Below, in pieces: positions 13,283 through 28,731 of a stretch of 28,972 nucleotides of DNA (within the stretch, counting starts at the first letter, position 1; the number at the start of each line of letters is the position of its first letter). Made by a program: the position numbers and the translations under genes. Source of the DNA: Gemmatimonadota bacterium (GTDB taxonomy: Bacteria; Latescibacterota; UBA2968; UBA8231); assembly GCA_038153405.1 (NCBI GenBank), contig JAYOYH010000055.1, forward strand, positions 1 through 28,972, in the 5' to 3' direction. Under the pieces are notes generated by a model. It worked only from the letters and a program-made list of their open reading frames with translations, did not search any database and was not told the origin of the DNA.

Positions 13283-15253
13283 ATGTGTCGCATCGCCTGG
13301 ATCATTCTTCTCGTCTTCTCCTACGGCGTTGAGGCGCAGCAAAAGTACAGCCTCAATTTCAATCGCTCGAGCACGCGCACAAAGTGGAGCCATCGCCTGC
13401 CGAGCTGGCAGTACAAGGTGCCCGTGCGCTTGGCGGCTACCGGCGACTCTACCTCTCAGCTCAGCATCTCTACCTCGGCCAGTATGAGCTTTACGCTCGA
13501 CGAGCGCAACGATCGCAAGACGTGGCAGGACAATGCCTCTCTTGGATCGACGGTTAACTATCCCATCTTAGGGCCCAAGGCGACGATTGGCATCGGTGCC
13601 AATATGTCGCTGCGAAGCTCCACGCTGCAAAAGCAGAAGCTGCGCGACCAGACATTTAACTTTCGCTTTCAGTACAAGCCAATTGACGAGGGGCGCTTTG
13701 ACGATCTATCCGTTAGCGTAACGCCGGGACTCATAACGAAGACGCGCGACAGTCGCGCTAATCTGGACAGCACAATTGAGGAAACCGGGGTTCAGTATAA
13801 TGCCTCGCTTCGCGTGTCGCCCGAAATCAAATTAGCTGGAAAAAAACTGGGGAACTCGCTGTCGTTCAGTAAGCGCGACAATACGCTGAAAAACAACAAG
13901 GATCGCAGCGAGAGCTTTAGTAGCAGTGCCAACTATACGCTGCCCGGCGGCGTTCGCACCAGCATCAGCTTTACGGAATCTCGTTCCGAAGTCGGTATCA
14001 CGCGATCGGTCGTTGGAGAAAGCGAAGTCGAAGGAATTGTGCGCCGCGATACGAGCATTGCTGCGGAAATATCGCAGAGCCGCAACACCGGTTTTAGTTC
14101 AAACATCGATTTCGATGTTGGCCGTTTTAAGGTGCGCAGCAGCGCTTCGTATGGGCAAAACCAGCGCACCAATACGGCCAGCGCCGAACAGGACGCCGGC
14201 AATCGCTACTTTGGAACGGATAGAGAAAGTCGCAGTTGGAACTGGCAATCGGAGGTTTCGGGTAAACTGGTAGAGCCCGTGTTATGGAATTCTAAACTGC
14301 GCTTTGAGTCGAGCGACCAGCGCAACCTAGCCGTGCGCGTGCTCGACGTGGGGCGCTGTGCCAGTCACTTTGTCACGTCGCCCGATGGAACGTGCCGCGA
14401 TCCCAGCTCAGACTTGGATAATGGACGTCTGTTTCTCAACACCTCGCTCACGTGGACGCTGACGGAAAAGCACTCGTTAAAACTATCGACTTGGGCGGAT
14501 ATAAAGCGCGCGGAGAATCCAGGCGCGCCCGAGCAAAATCGCGATACCTACAGCAATAGTTTTACTTTGCGCTACGACGGCTCTCTGGCTGACGATGCGC
14601 GAGTCAATATCGAAGTGCGCAACTCCTTTTTGCACCGCATCAACATGGCAGCTACGCGTTCGGGAGATAACTCGCGTAACCGCGATATCGTTCTCGATAT
14701 CGGCAGCAGCTATCAGCGCTTAGGGATTAGCATATCGCATAACTTTAGCATATCGGCCAAGCGAACCATTTTTGACTTTGATCGCCAACTCAATCGAACC
14801 ACCTCTGCGCGCAAGAGCAATATTCGCCGCGGTTGGAGCATGAATCACACGGCAAATCGCAAGGTATTAGCACACTTGCGCCTAAACGGACGCTACTCGT
14901 ATTCGGCCGATGATTTCGGCACGTTGGTGGTAGAGAACGGGGCGCAAATCGTCGAAGAGGATAACAACCGCCACAGCGTTGGTGTTGGACTGTCGTATTC
15001 GCCCATTCAGGCCCTGTCCATAACGACGTCCTATAACTTTTTGCTGGATCGCCGCTGGGATCACGAATACGCTGGAGGTCAGGAAGCGCGCGTGCAGGAC
15101 GCCGGTCGCCGCAATAGAAACCGATCGCTTAGCTTTAACGTCAGCTACTCGCCGACCGACAATCCCAATCAATTGTCGCTGCGGGCAAGTCGTTCGCGGC
15201 AGCGCAGCGGCACCTTTGATACATTTAGCGTTACCTACTCGCGAACTTTATAG
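13283..15253 (+). CDS. Hypothetical exported protein, probable outer-membrane beta-barrel
   Basis: Sec signal peptide (MCRIAWIILLVFSYGVEA|Q). S/T/N/R-rich with alternating hydrophobic strands throughout. C-terminal strand TFSVTYSRTL. Confidence 0.7.
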   Translation: MCRIAWIILLVFSYGVEAQQKYSLNFNRSSTRTKWSHRLPSWQYKVPVRLAATGDSTSQLSISTSASMSFTLDERNDRKTWQDNASLGSTVNYPILGPKATIGIGANMSLRSSTLQKQKLRDQTFNFRFQYKPIDEGRFDDLSVSVTPGLITKTRDSRANLDSTIEETGVQYNASLRVSPEIKLAGKKLGNSLSFSKRDNTLKNNKDRSESFSSSANYTLPGGVRTSISFTESRSEVGITRSVVGESEVEGIVRRDTSIAAEISQSRNTGFSSNIDFDVGRFKVRSSASYGQNQRTNTASAEQDAGNRYFGTDRESRSWNWQSEVSGKLVEPVLWNSKLRFESSDQRNLAVRVLDVGRCASHFVTSPDGTCRDPSSDLDNGRLFLNTSLTWTLTEKHSLKLSTWADIKRAENPGAPEQNRDTYSNSFTLRYDGSLADDARVNIEVRNSFLHRINMAATRSGDNSRNRDIVLDIGSSYQRLGISISHNFSISAKRTIFDFDRQLNRTTSARKSNIRRGWSMNHTANRKVLAHLRLNGRYSYSADDFGTLVVENGAQIVEEDNNRHSVGVGLSYSPIQALSITTSYNFLLDRRWDHEYAGGQEARVQDAGRRNRNRSLSFNVSYSPTDNPNQLSLRASRSRQRSGTFDTFSVTYSRTL

Positions 15254-15309: not shown

Positions 15310-16233
15310 ATGCCCCCTATGCCCAAATCCGACAAAATATGGTTTAACGGCGAGTTGCTCGATTGGGACCAAGCCCGCGTGCACGTCCTCTCGCATGTGG
15401 TGCACTATGGATCGAGCGTTTTCGAGGGCATTCGCTGCTACAATACCGATAAAGGCCCTGCGGTTTTTCGCCTTAAGGAACACGTGGATCGGCTCTTTGA
15501 CTCGGCGAAGATCTACCGGATGGAAATACCCTATAGCCGCGAGGAAGTGAGTGAGGCCATCCTCGAGACGATCCGCGTCAACGGCCTCAATGCCTGCTAT
15601 ATTCGCCCCGTTGTCTTTCGCGGCTACGGTTCGCTGGGCGTCGATCCCACGACCTGTCCGGTCGATACGGTGATCGCGGTTTGGGAATGGGGCCAGTACT
15701 TGGGCGAAGAGGCGCTGAGAAAAGGCGTGTCGGTCTGCACCTCTTCGTGGAATCGCGTGGCGCCCAATACCCTTCCCTTCTTGGCCAAGGCTGGCGGCAA
15801 TTATCTCAACTCGCAGCTGGTGCGCATGGAAGCCAACTCGAATGGCTACGACGAGGGCATCGTTTTGGGCACCGATGGATTGGTTAGCGAAGGCAGCGGC
15901 GAAAATATCTTTGTCGTGCGCGGAGACATCGTCTATACGCCCGCTTCGCACTACGCAATTCTCTCCGGTATAACGCGCGATACGGCCATGGTGCTGGCGC
16001 GCGACGCCGGCATACGCGTCGAGGAGCGTGGGATCCCGCGCGAATTGCTCTACATCGCCGACGAGGTGTTTTTCACGGGAACCGCTGCAGAAATAACGCC
16101 GATTCGCCAGATCGATAAAATACAAATTGGCGCAGGGGAGCGCGGTCCCATAACGGAAAAGCTCCAGGGGCTATTTTTCGATCTTTTGCACGGCAAAGTA
16201 GAAGACCGCCATAACTGGCTGACGTTTGTTTGA
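15310..16233 (+). CDS. ilvE: Branched-chain amino acid aminotransferase (PLP fold IV)
   Basis: [34 protein letters not shown] (PLP lysine), [39 protein letters not shown]. Confidence 0.97.
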
Positions 16234-16256
16234 TGGATTTACCAAGGAGATTTGAT

Positions 16257-18089
16257 ATGCTCGTTGCCAGAACGGTTGGCATATTCCTCGTTGCTCTTGT
16301 TACTACGGTCCATGCCCAAGAGGATGACGCTTGGAATGCCGTGCAGAATATCCTCATGAATACGCAGGATATTGTCGTGCTCGACGGCACGGAGAAGGCA
16401 CCGCTGCGCTATGCTGGAGAAGGCGATCCGCAGTATGGCGACTGGATGGTGCGCCATATGCTGTCCGATCCGCAGAGCTTCAATCCGTATACGTCGAGTG
16501 ATGCCGGCGCTTCTACCGTGATGCAGTACATCTTCGATACGCTGCTCTACGCAGACAACGAGCCGCCCTACCAGTTAAAGGGCAAAGTCGCCAAGAGCTA
16601 CCCGCAAGTTTCTGCAGACAAGTTGTCCTACACATTTGCGCTGAGAGAAGACGTGTATTTTTCCGACGGTCGTCCGCTGACGGCTGAGGATGTGCTGTTC
16701 AGCATGAAAGTCATCCAGAATCCGCGCGTATTGGCTCCGCATATGCGCAACTACTATTCGGCCGTCAAAAACGTCGTTACGAATGGGGACGGGTCAATTA
16801 CGTTCGAGTGCAATGAGCCCTACTTTCGCAACGACCTTTCACTTGGTTCCTTCGAAATTTTGCCTAGGCATTTTTACGATCCGGAAGGATTGTTGGATCC
16901 CGTTCCCATCACCTCGCTCATCGACGGCTCGTGGGAAACGGGGCCGCACAAAGAGCGGATCGAGCGTTTCGCCGATCAGTTTAACCAGGACTTCAATCGC
17001 AAACTCATGGGTTCGGGTCCCTATGCCATCGAGGATTTTGATCGCGATATCGTCACGCAGCAAAAAGTTGTCCTGACGCGCAACGCCGAATACTGGGCGC
17101 TGGAAGGGGGCGCTTTGCCCCCTTCGGGTTACGTCGATAAGATAGTCTTCAAGATCATTAACAATACTGATGCCGCCTTTATCGAGCTGACCAACGGCAA
17201 TATCGACTATCACGCGCTGCGTCCGCTGGAGTTTAAGGAGAAAAGCTGGTCAGACGACTTCAACAAACGCTTTCTCAAAGGCGTCGAGTACTCGGGTGGG
17301 TATACCTACATAGGTTGGAATAACACGCATCCCATTTTTGCGGATCGGCGCGTGCGTCAGGCTATGACGCATTTGACCGATCGCCAGAGCATGGTGGAAA
17401 ACCTGCTCTTTGGCCTGGCCGAGACCGTTGAAGGGCCGATTAGCAAGTTTCGCCCCGAATACAACCACGAACTGCAGCCGTACGGCTACGATTACGAACG
17501 CGCCCTTGACCTGCTCGACGAAGCGGGATGGGGCGACGCCGATGACGACGGCATTCTCGACAAAGAGATCGACGGCGAGAAGGTCGATTTTCGCTTTGAA
17601 CTGCTCATCAATTCCGGCAACCAGATCCGCAAGGATATTGCGCTGACCCTGCAGAGCGAATTGGCGGATGTGGGCATCGACTGCCAGGTGCGCGAGCTCG
17701 ACTGGTCCATCTTTCTGCAGCGCGTTAAGAGTAAGGACTTCGCTGCGATGGTGCTAGGCTGGAGCAGCGGTGTGAAGTTTGCTCCCGATGTATACCAGAT
17801 CTGGCACTCTTCGCAGGCCGAGGAACAGGGCTCAAATGCGATCAGTTTTATACATGCCGAAGCCGATAGCCTCTTGGAGGCGTATCGCCGCGAATTCGAT
17901 CCGGACAAGCGCATTGACCTCTACAAACGCTTTCAGAAAATCGTTTACGACGAACAGCCCTATACCTTCCTGTGGAAGTCGCGCGTAGCCCAGGCCTACA
18001 GCCGCCGCTTTGCCGGGGTGAACTGGTACCCGGCCGGTGCCGAAGTGGCCGAGTGGTGGGTCGACCAAGACGATCGGGTCTACCGCTAA
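16257..18089 (+). CDS. ABC-type peptide/nickel substrate-binding protein (SBP family 5), periplasmic
   Basis: RBS AAGGAG at 16244-16249 before ATG 16257. SPI signal MLVARTVGIFLVALVTTVHA|Q. Motifs P.SFNP, YTFALREDVYFSDGRPLTAEDV.FS, GSGPY, F.DRRVRQA, YDYERA..LLDEAGW, DADDDG. Confidence 0.9.
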   Translation: MLVARTVGIFLVALVTTVHAQEDDAWNAVQNILMNTQDIVVLDGTEKAPLRYAGEGDPQYGDWMVRHMLSDPQSFNPYTSSDAGASTVMQYIFDTLLYADNEPPYQLKGKVAKSYPQVSADKLSYTFALREDVYFSDGRPLTAEDVLFSMKVIQNPRVLAPHMRNYYSAVKNVVTNGDGSITFECNEPYFRNDLSLGSFEILPRHFYDPEGLLDPVPITSLIDGSWETGPHKERIERFADQFNQDFNRKLMGSGPYAIEDFDRDIVTQQKVVLTRNAEYWALEGGALPPSGYVDKIVFKIINNTDAAFIELTNGNIDYHALRPLEFKEKSWSDDFNKRFLKGVEYSGGYTYIGWNNTHPIFADRRVRQAMTHLTDRQSMVENLLFGLAETVEGPISKFRPEYNHELQPYGYDYERALDLLDEAGWGDADDDGILDKEIDGEKVDFRFELLINSGNQIRKDIALTLQSELADVGIDCQVRELDWSIFLQRVKSKDFAAMVLGWSSGVKFAPDVYQIWHSSQAEEQGSNAISFIHAEADSLLEAYRREFDPDKRIDLYKRFQKIVYDEQPYTFLWKSRVAQAYSRRFAGVNWYPAGAEVAEWWVDQDDRVYR

Positions 18090-18099
18090 AAGCGACTAA

Positions 18100-18525
18100 G
18101 TGGGCGAAACACATGCGGCGGATGGACCGCTCTCTTGGACGGTCCATCCGCTGATGCACGAGAGAGCGGGCAAGACGCTGGCGTTGATCAGCGCAGTAGG
18201 CGCAACCTGTTGCGCAGTAGCGCTTAGCTTCGAGCACGTCGGTTACGGCGTACTATCGTTCTGCATACTCGTCGGTTCGCTGGCGAGCTATTTCTTTCCC
18301 TCCCGTTACACGCTCGACGAAGTCGGCGTTTCCCGCGTCCTGTTGGGGCGCCGAAGCGCTCGTTCGTGGTCCGAGTTCCGCCGGGTTGATGCGCGCGACA
18401 ACGGGCTGTTTCTCAGCCCTTTTGCAAGCACCAGTCGCCTCGACTCATTTCGCGGCATATTTCTTCCATTTCACAAAAACCGCGACCAAGTTGTATATTA
18501 CGTCCAACGCTATGTCAATAATTGA
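18100..18525 (+). CDS. Hypothetical membrane protein (2 TM helices plus a small PH-like beta domain)
   Basis: LSWTVHP, two hydrophobic segments, then FFPSRYTLDEVGV...RSWSEFRR...LFLSPF..SRLDSFRG. GTG start; the stop overlaps the next gene. Confidence 0.75.
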   Translation: MGETHAADGPLSWTVHPLMHERAGKTLALISAVGATCCAVALSFEHVGYGVLSFCILVGSLASYFFPSRYTLDEVGVSRVLLGRRSARSWSEFRRVDARDNGLFLSPFASTSRLDSFRGIFLPFHKNRDQVVYYVQRYVNN

Positions 18526-18859
18526 GCGCATTAAAGCACAGTGGCAGCACGCTTTTGCCATTGCCGACTCGAATAGAGTGTGGGACGAAGCCGACCGGGA
18601 ACTGGTCGACAAACTCGCTTCGTTTATCGTGCGGCGCGGTTTGAGCATGCCGGCGGTCATGGTTCTCGAATCGAGTCGCCCCGTCAATTTTCTCGGCAGC
18701 CAACTACTGGCCTTTCTCGAGCCCTTCGCTACGCTGGTTTTTTCGCGGGCTGAATACGGGCGTTTCGTGCGTCTGCTGGAGCAGCGCAATTGCGTCGACT
18801 TCATTATGGATGCTATTGCGAAATTGGAATCGGAAAGCGAAAAAAACGCACATGGATAA
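18512..18859 (+). CDS. Hypothetical protein (~115 aa, helical, possibly membrane-associated)
   Basis: ATG 18512 overlaps the upstream gene. Motif IVRRGL..PAVMVLES.RP.NFLGSQ..AFLEPF...LLEQR. The stop overlaps the next ATG (ATGGATAA). Confidence 0.75.
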   Translation: MSIIERIKAQWQHAFAIADSNRVWDEADRELVDKLASFIVRRGLSMPAVMVLESSRPVNFLGSQLLAFLEPFATLVFSRAEYGRFVRLLEQRNCVDFIMDAIAKLESESEKNAHG

Positions 18860-20645
18860 AATTGACGTAGTTATCGCAACCGACTGCGGCAGCACGACGA
18901 CTAAAGCCATCCTCATAGAGAAGAAGGAAGACGGCTATCATCAGACGTTTCGCGGCGAGGCACCGACGACGGTGGAGGCCCCCTTCGAAGACGTGACGCG
19001 CGGCGTGCTCAACGCCATACAAGAGGTCGAGGAGCTATCTGGTCGGCAGATTCTCGACGGCGAGCACATCATTACGCCAGCAGAGGGACAGCGCGGCGTC
19101 GATATATACATTTCCACCAGCAGCGCGGGCGGCGGTTTGCAAATGGTCGTTTCGGGTGTGGTCAAATCGATGACGGGCGACAGCGCGCAGCGCTGTGCGC
19201 TGGGGGCCGGTGCCATCGTTATGGACGTGCTGGCGGCCAACGACGGCCGGCGGCCACATCAGAAAATTGAGCGCATTCGCCAGCTCCGTCCCGACATGGT
19301 GCTGCTGGCCGGTGGCACCGACGGCGGTACGGTAAGCCACGTAGTCGAACTGGCAGAATACGTTGGCGCTGCCGATCCCAAGCCGCGCTTTGGCAGCGGC
19401 TTTAAGCTGCCGGTCATTTACGGTGGCAATACGGAAGCGCGTGCAGAAGTCGAAGCCGTCCTGGGCGAGAAGACGGCATTGACCCTGACGGAGAATATTC
19501 GCCCCATATTGGAGCGGGAGAATCTGGGGCCTGCGCGTCAGGTTATTCACGACCTGTTCTTGGAACACGTAATGGCGCAGGCGCCGGGCTATAGAAAGCT
19601 GATGGACTGGACCGGTGCGCCGATTATGCCGACGCCGGGCGCGGTCGGCGAGATCATGCAGACGATTGCTCGCCAGATGGGGATCAACGTGGTAGGCGTC
19701 GATATCGGCGGTGCGACTACAGATGTATTCAGCGTGTTCTCCGAGGTATTCAACCGCACGGTCAGCGCTAACTTGGGTATGTCCTACAGTATCTCCAACG
19801 TCTTGGCCGAAGCGGGACTGGAACAGATTCTGCGCTGGGTGCCCTTCCAAATCGAAGAGGCTGACCTGCGCGACCGCATAAAGAACAAGATGATCCGTCC
19901 CACGACCATTCCACAACTTCTACAGGAGTTGCAGGTCGAACAGGCCATCGCGCGCGAGGCGCTGCGCCTGGCCTTTGTGCAGCATCGGGAACTAGCGGTT
20001 GGGCTTAAGGGCGTGCAAATCGAGCGAACGCTTTCAGATGTATTTAATCAGAACGACGAGGTTGATAGCCTAGTACAGATGATGGACCTCGACCTGCTCG
20101 TCGGCAGCGGCGGCGTCTTGTCGCACGCGCCGCGCCGCGCACAGTCGGCGGCCATGCTCATCGATGCCTTCCAACCCGAAGGCGTAACGCGTTTGGCCGT
20201 CGACAGCATCTTTATGATGCCGCACTTGGGCGTGCTATCCACGGTAAACGAGGAGGCGGCAACGCAGGTTTTTGAACGCGACTGCCTCATCTACCTGGGC
20301 ACGTGTGTCGCTCCTAAGGGATCGGGCAAAGCGGGCGAGACCTGTCTCAAATACTCTGTGGATCTACCCGCAGGGCGGCGCGAAGGATCGCTCTGCGTTG
20401 GCCAATTGCATCTGCTGGAACTGGACGCTGATGAAGAGGGTGAAATCGTGCTCATGCCCGCGCGCGACTGGGACGTCGGCGGTGGCCCCGGACAGGAAGT
20501 GCGCACGGTCGTGCGCGGCGGCGTCGTTGGTCTGATCATAGACGGTCGTGGGCGTCCGATTCAAATTGCCGAATCGGAAGAGGAGCGCCTCGCGCAAATG
20601 ACCGCTTGGCATCGCACGATGAACCTCTACGGCGGAGATCGATAA
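18852..20645 (+). CDS. GlmL/MutL-like ('glutamate mutase L') ASKHA-fold ATPase, 597 aa
   Basis: Phosphate-1 DCGSTTTK, SSAGGGL, inserted alpha/beta domain PDMVLLAGGTDGG, MPTPGAV, phosphate-2 VDIGGATTDVFS, RTVSANLGMSYS, adenosine motif LVGSGGVLSHA. Confidence 0.85.
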   Translation: MDKIDVVIATDCGSTTTKAILIEKKEDGYHQTFRGEAPTTVEAPFEDVTRGVLNAIQEVEELSGRQILDGEHIITPAEGQRGVDIYISTSSAGGGLQMVVSGVVKSMTGDSAQRCALGAGAIVMDVLAANDGRRPHQKIERIRQLRPDMVLLAGGTDGGTVSHVVELAEYVGAADPKPRFGSGFKLPVIYGGNTEARAEVEAVLGEKTALTLTENIRPILERENLGPARQVIHDLFLEHVMAQAPGYRKLMDWTGAPIMPTPGAVGEIMQTIARQMGINVVGVDIGGATTDVFSVFSEVFNRTVSANLGMSYSISNVLAEAGLEQILRWVPFQIEEADLRDRIKNKMIRPTTIPQLLQELQVEQAIAREALRLAFVQHRELAVGLKGVQIERTLSDVFNQNDEVDSLVQMMDLDLLVGSGGVLSHAPRRAQSAAMLIDAFQPEGVTRLAVDSIFMMPHLGVLSTVNEEAATQVFERDCLIYLGTCVAPKGSGKAGETCLKYSVDLPAGRREGSLCVGQLHLLELDADEEGEIVLMPARDWDVGGGPGQEVRTVVRGGVVGLIIDGRGRPIQIAESEEERLAQMTAWHRTMNLYGGDR

Positions 20646-21766
20646 TGGCCCACGCCTACACACCGGGTCTGCGCGTCACGCCGCACGCGGTGGTGCGCAA
20701 GGATCGCAAGCTGCCTCTCCAAGGGCAGGTCGTCGTCGCCCAAGGCGACGCGGTGCGCCGCGATCAGGTGGTCGCGCGGACCGATCTGCCCGGCGATGTC
20801 GTAGCGCTCAATCTGGTCAACAGGTTGGGGTGTGCGCCGGCCGAAGTGCCTCGATACATGCTGCACAAAGAGGGCGATGCGGTGCGCGAGGGCGAGCCGC
20901 TGGCTGCGACCCAGCCGTTTATTAAGTGGTTTAAAACTACGGTCAATTCGCCTGCTACGGGGGTGGTCGAGAGCGTGTCTGCGGTGACGGGCCAGGTCAT
21001 ATTGCGCAAGGAACCTCGTCCCGTAGAGGTGTTGGCCTATGTAGACGGCCAAGTGGTCGAGCTCTTCGAAGGCGAAGGCGTTAGCGTCGAGACGCGCGGC
21101 GCCTTTATACAGGGAATATTCGGCGTTGGCGGTGAATGCTGGGGTCCCCTGCACATGGCCGTTGGGTCGCCGGGCGAATTGTTGACTGCGCTGGGCGCAG
21201 AGTGCGCCGGTAAGATCGTTGTCGTGGGCAGTTTGGTTACGCTGGATCTCATTGAGATCGCGCGAAAGGTAGGCGCGATTGGACTGGTCGGTGGCGGTCT
21301 ACGCGACCAAGATTTGCGCGCCCTGCTGGGCTACGATCTCGGCGTAGCGATTACTGGCGATGAGGACATTGGTCTGACGGTGGTTGTTACGGAGGGTTTT
21401 GGCGAGGTGGCCATAGCCCACAAGACGTTCGATATCCTAAAAGCGTGTGAGGGCAAAGAAACATCCATTTCTGGCGCGACGCAGATTCGCGCCGGCGTGC
21501 TGCGGCCGGAGATCATCGTGCCCGATCCAGAGGGTGACCAACGCCGCTCCGAAGTCGACAGAAGAGAGAAGCACGGCATGGATATCGGCGATCTATTGCG
21601 CGTTATCCGCGTGCCGTACTTTGGCCGTATTGGCCGCGTTAGCGCGCTGCCAGCCGAGCTGCAAGAGGTCGAATCGGGCGCGCTTGTGCGCGTGCTTGAA
21701 GTCGAGTTTGAAAGCGGCGAGAAGGCCGTCGTTCCGCGCGCCAACGTCGAGATGATCGAAGAATGA
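20645..21766 (+). CDS. Hypothetical soluble protein with barrel-sandwich-hybrid motifs and a C-terminal KOW/SH3-like domain, 373 aa
   Basis: TAATG stop/start coupling to the ATPase. VAQGDAVRRDQVVA and HKEGDAVREGEPLA...SPATGVV are biotinyl/lipoyl-like motifs. IGDLLRVIRVPYFGRIGRV is KOW-like. Confidence 0.8.
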   Translation: MAHAYTPGLRVTPHAVVRKDRKLPLQGQVVVAQGDAVRRDQVVARTDLPGDVVALNLVNRLGCAPAEVPRYMLHKEGDAVREGEPLAATQPFIKWFKTTVNSPATGVVESVSAVTGQVILRKEPRPVEVLAYVDGQVVELFEGEGVSVETRGAFIQGIFGVGGECWGPLHMAVGSPGELLTALGAECAGKIVVVGSLVTLDLIEIARKVGAIGLVGGGLRDQDLRALLGYDLGVAITGDEDIGLTVVVTEGFGEVAIAHKTFDILKACEGKETSISGATQIRAGVLRPEIIVPDPEGDQRRSEVDRREKHGMDIGDLLRVIRVPYFGRIGRVSALPAELQEVESGALVRVLEVEFESGEKAVVPRANVEMIEE

Positions 21767-21788: not shown

Positions 21789-23006
21789 ATGTTAAACAGG
21801 GCGCTGCTGTGGGCGATTGCACTCGCCGCGCTATCTACTGCCGCCGTCGAGAGCCAGACTCAACTGCCGCCCATTGAGGGCTTTGAGGCGTTTGACACGC
21901 CCAGCGATGCTGGGGGCAGCATTACGTTAGTGTGGCCTCGCATCGCCGATGCGCCGGCGGGTTCGACCTATCGGGCGTTTATCGCAGCAAAGCGCGAGGG
22001 ACCGTACTACTTGGCGGCTGAGGTGTATAGCAATGCCAATTTACAGTCCGAAGATCCAGGGGCATTTGGCTACGGCGACGAGGCGAAAGCCGCCCACTTT
22101 TTGCGCATCGCACAGTATGAGACAGGCGCTGGCATGGCGTCGTTAGAAAATGGTGCGACCTATCACGTGCGCCTGGAATTGCATCACGGCAAGGTCTCGA
22201 CGCGCACGGCAGTAATTACCGCTGTCGCCGAGGGCAACTATTTCAACTGGGAAAAGCTGAACAACGCCGCACTCGGCGTGCTCTTATCGGTGCTCATCAT
22301 CGGCTACATCAGCTTGGCGCGGCGCCGCGCGCTATATATCCGTCGCATTGGCGGCTTGGAGGCGCTCGACGAGGCGCTAGGACGAGCAACGGAGATGGGC
22401 AAGCCGGTGCTCTTTATACACGGCCTGCGCGATATGAGCCAAATTTCGACCATTGCCGCCGTCAACATTCTCGGGCGCGTGGCCCGGCGAACGGCTGAAT
22501 ACGATACGGCTCTGCGCGTGGTCGCCCCCGACCCCGTCGTGATGTCTGTCAGCCAGGAGACGGTGCAGGCCTCGTATTTTGAAGCCGGTCGCCCCGACGC
22601 GTTTAATCCCGATCACGTATTTGTCGCCGGCACCGAACAGTTTAGCTATGCGGCGGCTACCGAGGGCATTATGGTTCGCGAGCGGCCGGCCGCCCACATA
22701 ATGATGGGCTATTTCTACGCCGAGTCGCTGCTGCTGGCCGAGACCGGCTCGACGACGGGGGCGATTCAAATCGCCGGCACGGACGCCTTCACGCAATTGC
22801 CGTTCTTCGTGACGACCTGCGACTATACGCTGCTCGGCGAAGAGCTCTATGCAGCCAGCGCCTACCTGTCGCGCGAACCCAAACTGCTGGGCAGTCTAAA
22901 GGGACAGGATGCGGGCAAGGCGATACTGATCGTCGTTATCGTCGCAGGAGCGCTGCTGGCGACGCTCGATATTCCGTTTCTCACTCACTTGTTTACCCCG
23001 CATTGA
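21789..23006 (+). CDS. Membrane protein: signal peptide, FN3-like domain, TM, alpha/beta domain, TM (recalls DUF6754)
   Basis: Signal MLNRALLWAIALAALSTAAVES; FN3-like start P...EAFDTPSDAGGSITLVW; TM followed by RRR; IRRIGGLEALDEALGRATEMGKP...QLPFFVTTCDYTLLGEELYAASAYLS..P; C-terminal TM. The DUF name is from memory and needs verifying. Confidence 0.8.
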   Translation: MLNRALLWAIALAALSTAAVESQTQLPPIEGFEAFDTPSDAGGSITLVWPRIADAPAGSTYRAFIAAKREGPYYLAAEVYSNANLQSEDPGAFGYGDEAKAAHFLRIAQYETGAGMASLENGATYHVRLELHHGKVSTRTAVITAVAEGNYFNWEKLNNAALGVLLSVLIIGYISLARRRALYIRRIGGLEALDEALGRATEMGKPVLFIHGLRDMSQISTIAAVNILGRVARRTAEYDTALRVVAPDPVVMSVSQETVQASYFEAGRPDAFNPDHVFVAGTEQFSYAAATEGIMVRERPAAHIMMGYFYAESLLLAETGSTTGAIQIAGTDAFTQLPFFVTTCDYTLLGEELYAASAYLSREPKLLGSLKGQDAGKAILIVVIVAGALLATLDIPFLTHLFTPH

Positions 23007-23016
23007 GGAGCGCGCG

Positions 23017-23685
23017 ATGATTTTTTTCAGCCGCATGCTGCCCGTAGTGGTCGCCTTTTGCTTTGGTGTATTGGGCATTGGCATTTACTACGTGCCGCAC
23101 GCAGCGGCGCAGAACCTGGAACGCGAGTTGGCTCTGTGGCTGCGCATCGTCTTTGCCTTCTCTTACTTGTTGGGTTTGTACAGCTTGCTCAACCTGCACT
23201 GGCAGCGCATTCGCCAGCGCGTTGCGGGGTGGGGATACAGCGTCGTCGTATACGTCGGTTTTGGCCTTATGATGCTCTTTGTCGTCTACAACGACGGCCA
23301 GGGCCCGTTTGCCGCTCAGGCCGAGGGGACGGCAGCCGAAAACGGCTATCAATGGCTCTTTGAATACGTGCACGTTGCCTGCTCGTCGACCATGTTTTCC
23401 ATTCTCGCCTTTTTTATCGCTTCTGCTGCTTACCGCACCTTTCGCGCACGCACGCCGGAGGCGGCCCTGCTGCTGGTTGCGGCGGTCGTGGTGATGTTGG
23501 GGCGCGTGCCTATCGGCGCCTATATATCCGAATACGTGCCGGCCGCGGCCGATTGGCTGCTCAACGTGCCCAACCTAGCGGCTAAACGCGGCATCTTGTT
23601 GGGCGTGTCATTGGGTGCCATCGCTACCTCGCTGCGCATTATCTTTGGCATTGAGCGCTCCTATTTGGGAGGAGGCGAAGAATGA
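23017..23685 (+). CDS. Hypothetical polytopic membrane protein (~6 TM)
   Basis: RBS GAGGAG. Six hydrophobic segments with basic loops QRIRQR and YRTFRART. C-terminal AAKRGILLG..LG....LRIIFGIER. Confidence 0.85.
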   Translation: MIFFSRMLPVVVAFCFGVLGIGIYYVPHAAAQNLERELALWLRIVFAFSYLLGLYSLLNLHWQRIRQRVAGWGYSVVVYVGFGLMMLFVVYNDGQGPFAAQAEGTAAENGYQWLFEYVHVACSSTMFSILAFFIASAAYRTFRARTPEAALLLVAAVVVMLGRVPIGAYISEYVPAAADWLLNVPNLAAKRGILLGVSLGAIATSLRIIFGIERSYLGGGEE

Positions 23686-24497
23686 TACAGTGGCTGATGA
23701 ATATAGATCGGCGCATTATCTTCATCTTCGTATTTTTCGGCGTCGCGCTGCCCCTCTTGTCCAATGTATTTCTGCCGATAAAGCCCACCCGCGATGTGGT
23801 GGCTGTATACGAGGAGTTAGAGAAAGTAGCCGAAGCCGGCGGCACCGTCCTGCTCAGCTTCTCCTACGGCGCTAGCACCGTGCCAGAGATGCAGCCCATG
23901 GCGCGGGCCATCCTGCGCCACTGCTTTAGCCGCGATATCAAGGTCGTCGCCGTTTGTCTGTGGCCCGAAGCGCCGGGTTTGGCGCAGCAGGTGCTCGAAG
24001 AGATCGGCACGGAATTTGGCAAAACCTATGGCGAGGACTACGCGTTTCTCGGCTACAAACCGGGCAATTTCAGCGTCGTGCTTAATATGGGGCAAGATTT
24101 CCACGACGCCTTTCCGCAGGATAACTGGGGCACTGCCATCGAAGACCTGCCGCTGACGCGCAATTTGCGGACGCTGCGAGACTTCGACTTTGTATTCGAC
24201 CTGGCCGCTGGCGACTCCATTGAGTTTTGGTGGATTCCCTATGGGCAGGAGAAGTACGGCTTTCCCTTTGCCGGCGGCTGCACGGCCGTTATGGCGCCCG
24301 ATCTATTTCCTTTTTTGCAGTCGCGGCAAATGGTGGGGCTCTTGGGAGGATTGGCCGGTGCGGCGGAGTATGAAACGCTGGTCGGCAAGCAGGACAAGGC
24401 GACGGCCGGCATGAGCGCGCAGTCGATGGCCCATCTGATTATCGTCGTATTTATCGTCTTCGGCAACATAGCCTTTTTCCTCTCTCGCCGGCGCTAA
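23682..24497 (+). CDS. Hypothetical membrane protein (TM, alpha/beta domain, TM)
   Basis: ATGA overlap and RBS GGAGGAGG. DRR then N-terminal TM. Motifs EMQPMA, YGEDYAFLGYKPG, GCTAVMAP..FPF.QS.Q..GLLGGL.GAAEYE, MSAQS.AHL. C-terminal TM followed by RRR. Confidence 0.85.
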   Translation: MIQWLMNIDRRIIFIFVFFGVALPLLSNVFLPIKPTRDVVAVYEELEKVAEAGGTVLLSFSYGASTVPEMQPMARAILRHCFSRDIKVVAVCLWPEAPGLAQQVLEEIGTEFGKTYGEDYAFLGYKPGNFSVVLNMGQDFHDAFPQDNWGTAIEDLPLTRNLRTLRDFDFVFDLAAGDSIEFWWIPYGQEKYGFPFAGGCTAVMAPDLFPFLQSRQMVGLLGGLAGAAEYETLVGKQDKATAGMSAQSMAHLIIVVFIVFGNIAFFLSRRR

Positions 24498-24520: not shown

Positions 24521-25249
24521 TTGACGCGCGATACCTACATATTTCTGGCTCTGGTGTTGACCTTTGCCTTCGTAAATGGCGTGCTGCTGGCCAACGGTTC
24601 CCTCGCCGCCGATTGGAATAGCTTAGGCATTATGGTCGCCGCCGGTCTGACGCTGGCACTCTACAGTTTTCTCTACAAGGACAATCCGCTGTTTAAGGCC
24701 GCAGAAAATATCTACGTTGGCGTTGCAGCAGCGTATGTCTTTGGTCAGTACTGGTATCAGACGATCTACGGTGAAATTTTTGTTCGGCTGAAAGCGCTGG
24801 GCGGGGAAGACAGTACGCAGGGCGACTGGTGGCTGTTGGCGCCCACTCTGCTGGGGCTGCTGATGCTGACGCGCTTCTCGCGGCGCTTCGGTTGGCTGAG
24901 TCGCTTCTCCTTTGCTTTCTTCGTTGGGCTGGGAGCCGGGCTGACGATACCGCGCACTATTTCTTCCTTTATACTGGCGCAGATTGAGCCGACGCTGCAG
25001 CCGCTGAGTTGGAGCGTCGAAGGCCTGAACCTGCTGATTATTTTGGTCGGCGTGGTCGCTGTACTCGTCTATTTTTTCTTCTCGGTAGAGCACTCCGGCG
25101 TCGTGGGCAAGGTGTCGCGCGTGGGTATATGGTTTCTCATGGTTTCGTTTGGCGCCTCGTTCGGCTACACGATAATGGCTAGGCTGTCCCTGCTGATCGG
25201 ACGCGTCACATTTCTTCTAGATGACTGGCTTCATTTGATGACAAATTGA
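24521..25249 (+). CDS. Hypothetical polytopic membrane protein (~7 TM)
   Basis: TTG start after RBS AGGGAG. Motifs LTLALYSFLYKDNPLFK.AE.IYVG, YFFFS.EH.G, FGASFGYTIMAR.SLLIGR..FL..WL. Confidence 0.85.
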   Translation: MTRDTYIFLALVLTFAFVNGVLLANGSLAADWNSLGIMVAAGLTLALYSFLYKDNPLFKAAENIYVGVAAAYVFGQYWYQTIYGEIFVRLKALGGEDSTQGDWWLLAPTLLGLLMLTRFSRRFGWLSRFSFAFFVGLGAGLTIPRTISSFILAQIEPTLQPLSWSVEGLNLLIILVGVVAVLVYFFFSVEHSGVVGKVSRVGIWFLMVSFGASFGYTIMARLSLLIGRVTFLLDDWLHLMTN

Positions 25250-25317: not shown

Positions 25318-25343
25318 ATGGGGGATAGAGGTCCCATTTTTTT
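25318..25343 (+). terminator. Possible weak intrinsic terminator ending the membrane-protein operon
   Basis: ATGGGG-loop-TCCCAT followed by a T-run. It is preceded by a second hairpin, TACTCAA..ACGTGC-GCGA-GCACGT.TTGAGTA (25265-25303). Confidence 0.45.
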
Positions 25344-25440
25344 CATTGAATTTTTTTAAAAAATTGCCATCTTCTACTAACTTTTGACAAATAATTTAGT
25401 ATCAAACAGAAAGGGAAAATCGCTTTCTCTATTCCCTCCG

Positions 25441-25617: not shown

Positions 25618-28600
25618 ATGACTAAGCTCCAAGGGGTTTTACGCGTCTTGACGTCGCTTTGCATGCTTTGGGCGTTTTCAGCGGTGCCCACCGCTGATGC
25701 GGCCAGCGCAGGCAAGATCGTCGGCGTTGTTACCGATGCGAACACGGGAGATCCACTCCCGAACGCCAACGTGCAGCTCGTTGGTGCAGATATGGGAACG
25801 ATTGCCGACGAAGAAGGCCGTTTCGTCATCATCAACGTTCCCGCTGGCACCTACACCCTGCGCGCAACGTACATCGGGTACACGGCGTTGCAGATCCAAA
25901 ATTTGCGCGTTGCTACGGGACTGACTTCGGAAGTCGAAGTGGCCATGTCCTCTTCCGATATACAGGTCGAAGAAGTCATCATTAAGGCTGAGCGTCCCAT
26001 CATCGACAAGAATGCGACCAACGCGGTGCGCATTATCGGTGCCGAGGATTTGGAAGCGCTGCCGACGCGCAGCACGACGGAGGTCGTGGCGCTGCAGCCA
26101 GGCGTAGTCCTGCAAGACGGCGCACTGCACGTGCGCGGCTCGCGTTCGGACGAAATCGCTTACTACATTGAGGGCACCAGCACGCGCAACCCCGTAACCG
26201 GTGGCAGCGCGGCCGAGTTGATCAACGAAGCCATCGAAGAAATTCAGGTGCAGGCCGGCGGTTTTAACGCCGAATACGGCGGTGCTACGGCGGGTGTTGT
26301 TACGCGCCAGTTGCGCACCGGTGGCACCGAGTGGGAATTCAGCCTACAGAGCGAACTCGATAACGGCGCGGCCGATTACGAGCAGCGCTTTGGCGCGTAT
26401 AACTACGGCTACCAGAACTTGGTGGCCACCGCCGGTGGACCGGTTGGTCCGCTGCGCCTCTTCACCGCCATACAGCGAGAGACGATTGATTCGCCGCCGA
26501 TTTTCTGGGACGGATTCTCGCTCTACAACCTGCAGGATACGGGTGATCGCGGCGGTCGCGTCCACTGGGCCGACCAGGATACGCCGGATCGCATCGATAC
26601 GCTGAGCGTTCAGGACGGCAATATCGCCAATAGCGCCAGCAGCGTGGGCCGTCTCAACACGACGCTGCTCTGGGATCTGAGCCCGATTCAGCTCAAGCTG
26701 ACGCACGTGTATGCACAGAGCGAGGGCGAGAGCAGCGGCTTGCCCATTCGCAACATCTTTAACACGGAGCGCTTGGGCGAGTCGAAGAGCACGCAGAACA
26801 TGTTCAGCTTGAAGGCGACGCACTTGATTTCGGCCAGCACGGTCTACGATCTGACGCTGTCCTACTTGAAGAACGAGTCCGAAAGTTACGATCCGTACTT
26901 TGAGGACAACTTCCTGCTCTACAGCGATAGCACGGCCGTCGCCGGCATCAATCCGGACTTCGTCGCCTTTACGCGCGCCGGTTCGGGACCGCGCGAATAC
27001 GACTTCAATGGCTTTCCGTTCACGCGTCCAGGTGCTACGATGACTGGTTACGGCAAGAGCACGGATGGTTATATCGGCCTATCGGGTAGCATCACCAATC
27101 AGGGCGATGTGCATCAGCTGAAAGCCGGTTTCGACTATCAGGCTTGGGAAGCGCGCCGTTTTAGCATTGGTGGATTGGGCTCGATTCGCAACCAGATCAA
27201 CCTTTCGCATCCGGAGCTCGAAGCCGTTTACGAGAGCTATTACAAGGGCAATATCAGCGACGACAATCTGCTCAACGAGATGGTCAAGGCCGCTGAAGCC
27301 GCTGGCAAGCTTGAGGACCTGCAGCGCCTGATTCGCCAGAACAGCCGCGGCGATTTCTTCGGCTACGACGAGTTTGGCCGCGAGCAGGACGGCGGTGGCT
27401 CGTTGGGCGGCGATTTGGAAGCCCCGCGCAAGCCGGTTATGGCTTCTGCCTATCTGCAGGACAAGATTGAGTATCGCGACTTGATCGTGAACGCGGGCAT
27501 CCGCCTCGACTACTTCGACATCGACTCGTGGGACATCGTCAAAGACGACAACGGTCTGGCCACGATCAACCGCGATGAGAACAACTACACGCTGAGAATT
27601 TCGGAAGACGGCAAGACCTATATGACGCCGAGCGAGACGCACACGAAGATTAGCCCGCGTCTCGGTTTCTCCTTCCCGGTCTCCGATCGCACGGTGATGC
27701 ACGTTCAGTACGGCAAGTTTGCCCAGATGCCGGCGCTGCGTCAGGCACTGACTGGCGGTGCGCGCCTGGCCCTCGAAACGGGCGGTCAGAACTTTATCAA
27801 CGCGCCGACCGCGTTCAACTTGGAGCCGATGCACACGACGCAGTACGAAATCGGCTTTGAGCAGCAGTTCACCGATCGCGCGTCCTTCGACATCACGGGT
27901 TTCTACCGCGATATCAAAGGCCAGATCCAACTGCGCAACCAGGCCGTATCGCCGCTGTCGGTGGGCGCTTCGGGCGGCTACAACTTCCTCCAGAACGGCG
28001 ACTTTGCTACCACGCGTGGTATCGAGTTCGTGCTGAAGGTTCGCCGCACGCGCGGTTTGATGACCGAGTTTAACTACACGCTGCAGGATGCGCGCGGCAC
28101 CGGTTCGTCGACGCTGACGGCCGTATCGGGCGTCGAAAACAAGACGAACCTGCCGACGCTGGTCATGCCGCTCGACTTTAACCAGCGCCACAGCGGCAGC
28201 CTGTTGCTCGACTATCGCATCGAGCGCCAGGGCAGCCTGTTGGACCGGTTAAACAGCAGCCTGTTGTTCACCTTCTCTAGCGGTCATAACTACACGTTGG
28301 TGGGCGGTTCGCTCGGTCAGCGCGGACCGCAGGACGGCGCGATCATGGACGACTTTGATCCGCGCTCGCGCAAGCCGCTCGAGGCGATCAACTCGTCGAC
28401 CACGCCGTGGATCTTTGAAACGGATATGCGCATTTCAAAGGCCTTCAGCATAGGCTCCGATCGCAGCGTGAACGTGTTCCTGCGTGCCGACAACCTGTTC
28501 AATCGCAAGAACGTGATCAACGTCTATCGACGCACGGGAACGGCCACCGACGACGGCTTCTTGACCACGCCTGAGTTGAGTGAGCAGATTGTCGCCGCGC

Positions 28601-28731
28601 GCGGCGATGCCTTTGTCGATATGTTCGAGAAGATCAACCTGCAGAATCGCGAACACTACTGGGCGAATCAGGGCGGCGACCTATTTTCCTCGCCGCGTCA
28701 GATTCACCTCGGATTCAGCTTGGACTTCTAA
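25618..28731 (+). CDS. TonB-dependent receptor with N-terminal carboxypeptidase-regulatory-like domain
   Basis: Signal peptide; GKIVGVVTDANTGDPLPNANV...GRFVIINVPAGTY; TonB-box-like EEVII; plug LHVRGSR..YYIEG...IEEIQV.AGGFNAEYG; SPRLGFSFP; C-terminal PRQIHLGFSLDF ending in Phe. RBS AAAGGAG. Confidence 0.93.
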   Translation: MTKLQGVLRVLTSLCMLWAFSAVPTADAASAGKIVGVVTDANTGDPLPNANVQLVGADMGTIADEEGRFVIINVPAGTYTLRATYIGYTALQIQNLRVATGLTSEVEVAMSSSDIQVEEVIIKAERPIIDKNATNAVRIIGAEDLEALPTRSTTEVVALQPGVVLQDGALHVRGSRSDEIAYYIEGTSTRNPVTGGSAAELINEAIEEIQVQAGGFNAEYGGATAGVVTRQLRTGGTEWEFSLQSELDNGAADYEQRFGAYNYGYQNLVATAGGPVGPLRLFTAIQRETIDSPPIFWDGFSLYNLQDTGDRGGRVHWADQDTPDRIDTLSVQDGNIANSASSVGRLNTTLLWDLSPIQLKLTHVYAQSEGESSGLPIRNIFNTERLGESKSTQNMFSLKATHLISASTVYDLTLSYLKNESESYDPYFEDNFLLYSDSTAVAGINPDFVAFTRAGSGPREYDFNGFPFTRPGATMTGYGKSTDGYIGLSGSITNQGDVHQLKAGFDYQAWEARRFSIGGLGSIRNQINLSHPELEAVYESYYKGNISDDNLLNEMVKAAEAAGKLEDLQRLIRQNSRGDFFGYDEFGREQDGGGSLGGDLEAPRKPVMASAYLQDKIEYRDLIVNAGIRLDYFDIDSWDIVKDDNGLATINRDENNYTLRISEDGKTYMTPSETHTKISPRLGFSFPVSDRTVMHVQYGKFAQMPALRQALTGGARLALETGGQNFINAPTAFNLEPMHTTQYEIGFEQQFTDRASFDITGFYRDIKGQIQLRNQAVSPLSVGASGGYNFLQNGDFATTRGIEFVLKVRRTRGLMTEFNYTLQDARGTGSSTLTAVSGVENKTNLPTLVMPLDFNQRHSGSLLLDYRIERQGSLLDRLNSSLLFTFSSGHNYTLVGGSLGQRGPQDGAIMDDFDPRSRKPLEAINSSTTPWIFETDMRISKAFSIGSDRSVNVFLRADNLFNRKNVINVYRRTGTATDDGFLTTPELSEQIVAARGDAFVDMFEKINLQNREHYWANQGGDLFSSPRQIHLGFSLDF

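Follow-up and report, generated by a model that had tools for sequence, protein, structure and literature searches.

The stretch analysed here is contig JAYOYH010000055.1 of assembly GCA_038153405.1, a window of 28,972 nucleotides, which carries on its plus strand a tightly packed run of the genes A141, B113, a GlmL-like ATPase (PF13941), C386, D405, E222, F271 and G242, followed by a terminator-like hairpin (Table 1). Two of the products, D405 and F271, belong to families (D and F) that are predicted, with high confidence, to have opposite membrane topology. We tentatively propose that they are ancient paralogues of inverted topology within a pseudo-symmetric complex with E222 and G242 (families E and G), which would import a solute by means of the co-inherited GlmL-like ATPase. 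The window is one contig of a 4.86-Mb genome that is 93% complete, and the closest relatives of this genome are metagenome-assembled genomes labelled Latescibacterota or Gemmatimonadota.

The open reading frames (ORFs) of D405 (405 amino acids) and F271 (271 amino acids) are both present on the plus strand, separated by a membrane gene of 222 codons, and the sequence strings and charge clusters quoted in the original prediction were all found in their translations. The layout it had assigned to both, an alpha/beta domain between two transmembrane helices (TMs), was borne out by hydropathy and by both AlphaFold models. Opposite orientations had been derived from the positive-inside rule. Lysines and arginines (K/R) were counted on the flanks of both TMs, on the domain side and on the other side, in all rows of both families. 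The domain side was richer in K/R in 79/79 rows of D (mean 7.3 vs 2.2) and in 1/119 rows of F, where 113 rows were biased the opposite way and 5 were equal (mean 2.1 vs 5.3). The bias is thus opposite across both families.

The signal peptide and fibronectin type III (FN3) domain read from D405 fit the family, in which the N-terminal domain is FN3-like: PF00041 was matched by 10 of 20 rows (best E 6.4e-7), and the profile matched FN3 chains of titin and fibronectin. The FN3 domain of the window's own protein, in contrast, had no Pfam match when taken alone. Among 185 D ORFs, 160 have an N-terminal extension of at least 90 amino acids and 15 a short one. A signal-like peptide lies directly ahead of TM1 in 14 of these 15, the remaining one being cut by a contig end, and because of this placement TM1 of D is fixed as N-out. 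In the F family, zinc-ribbon domains, which are located in the cytoplasm, precede TM1 in 4 of 7 long homologues, and one homologue has CARDB Ig domains inserted inside its alpha/beta domain. Since the K/R bias, the signal peptide and FN3 domain of D, and the zinc ribbons and CARDB insert of F all agree, the D domain is predicted to be cytoplasmic and the F domain periplasmic. Among the F homologues P0433-P0438, P0331 and P0349 there are long acidic linkers before TM1 (four with zinc ribbons), or CARDB/HEAT repeats inserted near residue 112.

The two domains were then compared by fold. The F271 model has a pLDDT of 97.2 and a pTM of 0.92, and both models are confident and arrange TM1, seven helices, six strands and TM2 identically. 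The common order includes a leading helix, a short strand 6 that runs straight into a helix, and a long helix that leads into TM2. The comparison was transitive, through the structural neighbours of each AlphaFold model. Identical chains occurred 17 times in both top-50 VIA neighbour lists, with a start offset of +5 or +6 in 16 of the 17 and an end offset of -13 to -28; 3l4b was excluded from this overlap because different chains had been matched. In the models, D and F very probably have the same fold. Cross-family searches with hidden Markov models (HMMs) gave as the strongest match in each direction a segment in structural register, in one direction 65 columns (helix F, strand 6, helix G and TM2) and in the other 52 columns (helix B, strand 2, helix C and strand 3). 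The best scores were 9.3 and 10.2 bits, whereas reversed sequences reached 1.9 and 2.3. Both families have a motif in common where TM2 begins (GQD-x-G-K / AQS-x-x-H).

Other observations keep a common origin from being demonstrated. The profile of G, which is unrelated, scored 8.3 bits on F, BLASTP of D vs F gave nothing significant (best E 0.39), and the fold is the common Rossmann-like one. HHalign likewise found no significant profile similarity, with probabilities of 0.5%, 0.16%, 0.64% and 1.6% for alignments of rising diversity. A global profile alignment reached a z of 3.1 with TM2, a value matched in 1 of 60 shuffles, and 0.8 without TM2; its first half lay in structural register and strands 4-6 lay outside it. 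The alignment by eye of the C-terminal ends, from which the kinship had been proposed, matches the register of the structure comparison, but its sequence score is no better than noise. For the paralogy itself, the same element order and 17 common neighbours in register stand on one side, and the insignificant profile similarity and common fold on the other. Common ancestry of D and F is likely, but a sequence similarity indistinguishable from noise and so widespread a fold leave it short of demonstration.

An alternative is convergence, in which D and F would face opposite ways within one complex but as two unrelated Rossmann-like domains, each anchored by two TMs, so that the alignment by eye would be chance. 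We consider this unlikely, since the element order is identical down to the leading helix, the short strand 6 and the long helix into TM2, the register is constant over the 17 chains, the TM2 motif is shared, the two HMM segments are in register, and the D and F genes lie in one four-gene cassette.

By sequence family, residues 148-401 of D405 are DUF6754 (PF20539; E 7.4e-113, 376.4 bits vs a gathering cut-off of 27), a Pfam entry without function that does not cover F271. F271 had no Pfam family match, and for 119 F members at E<=1, the best 25 of 32 families did not include PF20539, the lowest E listed being 0.0025. The structural neighbours of D and F have DHS-like NAD/FAD-binding, RCK/TrkA-N and DsrE-like folds (3u31, 4j16_C, 1ytl, 4g65, 5but, 1kjn). 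These are all tied at 6-15% identity and leave the TM anchors uncovered, so that no function can be read from the fold. Foldseek with the F model returned no match at E<=0.001; for D it offered a TIM barrel (E 6.4e-4), which was rejected at a TM-score of 0.26. PDB sequence searches with F, C386, E, G, the D domain and GlmL gave nothing significant. In the ESM Atlas, F matched unnamed clusters only and D nothing beyond PF20539. One D row and two G rows containing X had been removed before folding.

The gene neighbourhood was scored in 80 genome loci within 10-kb flanks, some of them incomplete, taken from a full set of 180 loci. D, E, F and G were together and in order in 80/80 genome loci, D and F being one gene apart; C386 was present in 77 and GlmL in 73. 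The full set contains 152 complete D-E-F-G cassettes. At least two F genes were found in 19/180 loci; in several (L119, L144, L145, L174) two cassettes come after a single GlmL-C386 pair, and other loci have three in a row. In 14 loci, tandem cassettes shared 47-57% identity in D and 35-49% in F, and in all 28 such cassettes the nearest relative of each subunit was in another locus, never in the tandem mate. Judged by these relationships, the tandem cassettes are old and the cassette is duplicated as a unit. One sequence, P0432, is a natural F-G fusion of 591 amino acids on one contig, either real or due to a lost stop codon; it is joined through an extra TM that G242 of the window also has.

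No Pfam or NCBIfam family matched E, F or G above cut-off. E (predicted N-in) and the core of G (predicted N-out) each have about six TMs and an opposite K/R bias in their loops, so that they too look antiparallel. Profile comparisons of E vs G detected no similarity, and HHalign of all other pairs among the eight families gave at most 3.3%. When E and G were divided into thirds, G1 vs G2 reached the best HHalign value, 12.5%, followed by E1 vs G2 with 8.3%, which hints at internal repeats and no more. G242 may be a threefold repeat of a two-helix unit that carries a VGxxAG-like motif. D54, N55, E62 and R221 are invariant in G242, and conserved polar or charged residues lie in the helices or at their ends (E62 of G, H251 and N262 of F, D228 and K231 of D). 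A thiol relay of the DsbD type was rejected, as E and G have no conserved cysteine. Paired coevolution by mutual information with average product correction (152 cassettes, effective number 65) was set aside as lineage noise.

With high probability D, E, F and G form one complex. The original prediction had placed D and F in an antiparallel heterodimer, which is a putative arrangement and omits E222, G242 and the GlmL-like ATPase. Alternating access by D and F would be a guess, as each of them contributes no more than two TMs. Better candidates for the translocation path are E222 and G242, the companions of D and F in all of the genome loci.

The GlmL-like ATPase has an actin/Hsp70/sugar-kinase (ASKHA) fold with three motifs that we take to be the ASKHA phosphate/adenosine motifs, intact in 95, 97 and 94 of 97 rows. 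It stayed below all curated cut-offs (NF040745 221/475, NF040744 205/600, TIGR01319 157/204), with GlmL and Or-4 as best NCBIfam matches. Co-occurrence was examined in 15 DUF6754-positive and 15 negative genomes picked within the phylum; as these genomes are kin, the counts do not amount to a statistical test. All 15 positive genomes had F and a GlmL match at E ~1e-100 or better, whereas among the negative ones F was found in 0/15 and a strong GlmL match in 0/15; in 8 of them PF13941 matched just partially and weakly (E 1.3e-6 or weaker).

This pattern bears on an ion-coupled secondary transporter, the alternative closest to the original prediction, in which D-E-F-G would be self-sufficient and work by alternating access, with GlmL and C386 as assembly or regulatory accessories. 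The two pairs that are antiparallel by charge bias, the invariant acidic residue in a G helix and the occurrence of some cassettes away from the ATPase gene would suit it. We nevertheless regard it as highly improbable, since cassette and ATPase are strictly co-present or co-absent in 30/30 genomes and the ATP motifs are kept intact in nearly every row.

In PMC4682846 (Fig 4 legend), GlmL is described as a chaperone that reactivates glutamate mutase. No B12 mutase genes were found in the window, and a search for glutamate mutase E (PF06368) gave 0 matches in its own genome and was positive in one control genome. A search with PF09043 was positive in no control genome and carries no weight. The ATPase studied here seems to have a client other than glutamate mutase. 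We think it probable that it acts on the D-E-F-G complex, of which it is likely the energiser. It resembles GlmL/MutL, Or-4 and diol dehydratase reactivase in its PF13941 match and intact ATP motifs, and it differs from the GlmL/Or-4 reactivases in its scores below the cut-offs, its lack of adjoining mutase genes and its travelling with a membrane cassette. Its combination with C386 may resemble the domain composition of diol dehydratase reactivase.

In the C386 family (44 rows, E<=0.1), Biotin_lipoyl was matched by 33 rows, RnfC_N by 29 and KOW by 7; C386 itself has a weak RnfC_N/NQRA_N-like domain below cut-off. A role as lipoyl carrier was rejected, as its hairpin is longer than the lipoyl turn and the lysine is out of place. 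In the barrel-sandwich domain, the tip of the hairpin is conserved and hydrophobic (FIKWF or FFGLF-like), and C386 also matched a swivelling/RraA-like domain weakly (E 0.063).

From these data the following mechanism is proposed. A D-E unit would have undergone a single duplication, after which one copy was flipped to become F-G. According to PMC8675477, which sets out the antiparallel paralogue principle, a few K/R changes can be enough to invert a membrane protein. D, E, F and G, with about 16 TMs in total, would assemble into one complex in which E and G form the path, F is an outer receptor that catches the substrate outside, and D is the inner site at which the ATPase and C386 dock. By prying at the Rossmann-like domain of D, the ATPase would reset the cycle, as GlmL-type chaperones act on mutases. 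The assignment of receptor and dock fits the faster divergence of F, its acceptance of inserts, the stronger conservation of D and the presence of several cassettes per ATPase, although D is generally the better conserved of the two families.

The same proteins might instead form a signalling or remodelling device, with F sensing a ligand or the envelope state outside and D switching the ATPase and C386 inside, or with the ATPase extracting lipid or protein from the membrane. GlmL-type proteins appear in PMC4682846 (Fig 4 legend) as chaperones rather than transport ATPases. The tied structural neighbours include RCK/TrkA regulatory domains, F tolerates large inserts, and C386 exposes a hydrophobic hairpin tip. 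Such a device is nonetheless decidedly unlikely, since about 16 TMs with conserved polar and charged residues suit a path more than a relay, and several divergent cassettes after one ATPase gene resemble the arrangement of shared energisers.

For the proposed transporter, the chance that its job is import is about even. That the system represents a new class of primary transporter is rather doubtful; such a class would comprise a two-fold antiparallel DE/FG complex of four subunits, powered by an actin-fold ATPase in place of an ABC ATPase, born by duplicating and flipping a unit with a 200-residue globular domain, with the periplasmic copy as receptor, the cytoplasmic copy as dock, and several substrate-specific cassettes per motor. 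We know of no ASKHA ATPase that drives a transporter.

RnfA/RnfE, NqrD/NqrE and the SMR and DUF606 pairs are known antiparallel paralogue pairs. D and F resemble them in their linked genes, their opposite K/R bias and a pseudo-two-fold axis in the membrane plane, the axis being our proposal. The known pairs are nearly all membrane helix and alignable by sequence, whereas D and F would have flipped a globular domain of about 200 amino acids and lost their sequence similarity. Typical of Rnf and Nqr complexes are cysteines conserved in the membrane and subunits that carry flavin or Fe-S; the present system differs in that E and G have no conserved cysteine and in having, in C386, only the weak RnfC_N/NQRA_N-like domain. 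Energy-coupling factor (ECF) and ATP-binding cassette (ABC) importers offer an analogy, as they likewise combine one ATPase module with several divergent membrane modules, but none of the eight genes matched an ABC ATPase, an S/T component or a permease, and the ATPase here is actin-fold.

DUF6754 was found in 126/151 genomes of the phylum. The F family comprises 4,539 clusters at 50% identity, the names among its homologues include Planctomycetota, Chloroflexota, Bacillota, Cloacimonadota and Zixibacteria, and no F was found in plasmids. A literature search, with most subscription journals outside its coverage, returned no paper naming DUF6754, PF20539, PF13941 or TIGR01319 and none on this system; PMC3958899 was matched through its reference list alone. 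The module is real and conserved and lies outside every family tested except DUF6754 for D; its mechanism we infer. If correct, the proposal would describe a membrane machine driven by an ASKHA ATPase and a topology inversion that carried a full globular domain across the membrane, and it would assign a function to GlmL-like ATPases wherever the genome lacks the mutase known to be their client.

Table 1. Features of the gene run in the window
Feature	Position	Strand	Description
A141	18100..18525	+	small membrane protein, hydrophobic stretch at N-terminus; accessory operon gene
B113	18518..18859	+	small soluble protein, ATG at 18518; accessory gene
GlmL-like ASKHA ATPase	18852..20645	+	PF13941 E 2e-128; ORF open from 18810
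C386 (373 amino acids counted from conserved Met)	20645..21766	+	soluble partner; barrel-sandwich-hybrid (biotin/lipoyl-like, RnfC_N-like) part and KOW-like end
D405	21789..23006	+	signal peptide, FN3, TM1, Rossmann-like domain (predicted cytoplasmic), TM2; DUF6754
D405 signal peptide (~residues 1-22) and FN3-like domain	21789..22226	+	predicted outside; sequence, family alignment, FN3 matches
D405 alpha/beta domain (residues 188-361)	22350..22871	+	six strands, seven helices
E222	23017..23685	+	~6-TM membrane protein, predicted N-in/C-in; candidate half of translocation path
F271	23682..24497	+	TM1, Rossmann-like domain (predicted periplasmic), TM2; start overlaps E222 stop
F271 alpha/beta domain (residues 37-234)	23790..24383	+	element order of D plus ~24-amino-acid insert ahead of strand 4
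G242	24521..25249	+	~6-TM core predicted N-out, preceded in this lineage by one more TM
Terminator-like hairpin with T run	25318..25345	+	probable operon end, 3' of G242; consensus match only

In the genome loci, A141, which had no Pfam match above cut-off, was found in 69/80 and B113 in 72/80, and E222 and G242 in 80/80 each. The window contains 10 terminator-like sites vs 8.8 expected from shuffles, and a promoter scan of it gave matches at chance level only. Four RNA runs contained only scattered pieces of the contig of 47-301 bases, which indicate neither transcription nor habitat.

Neighbouring genes give some hints to a substrate. A single-domain lipoate-protein ligase (LplA/LipM-like) ORF lies near the module in 23/180 loci, on a side that differs by lineage: directly after G in L108-L111, L114, L117, L123, L138, L144, L166 and L174, directly before A141 in L062-L070, L075 and L079, and about 2 kb off in L098. 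In L177, lipoyl synthase is encoded just upstream of the module. The module is possibly linked to lipoate or acyl scavenging. In the window, a family-5 peptide-binding protein (16230-18089) precedes the operon. Relatives (L035, L049, L080, L100, L017, L155) have binding-protein and permease-like genes between GlmL and C386 and ABC ATPase-like genes after G. Several Latescibacterota loci thus have peptide ABC genes interspersed among those of the operon, and in L155 such genes lie on its flanks. Neither the peptide ABC link nor the LplA-like one is universal across loci.

Upstream, a 656-amino-acid ORF (13283-15253) without Pfam or NCBIfam match is kept beside ilvE in 38/80 loci. In one clade (L133, L141, L146, L148, L149, L156, L157, L165, L177) a MEMO-like gene follows the cassette. 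Past the terminator-like site of the window lies a gene for a TonB-dependent receptor (25618-28731), which had a match in 32/80 related loci, mostly directly after G.
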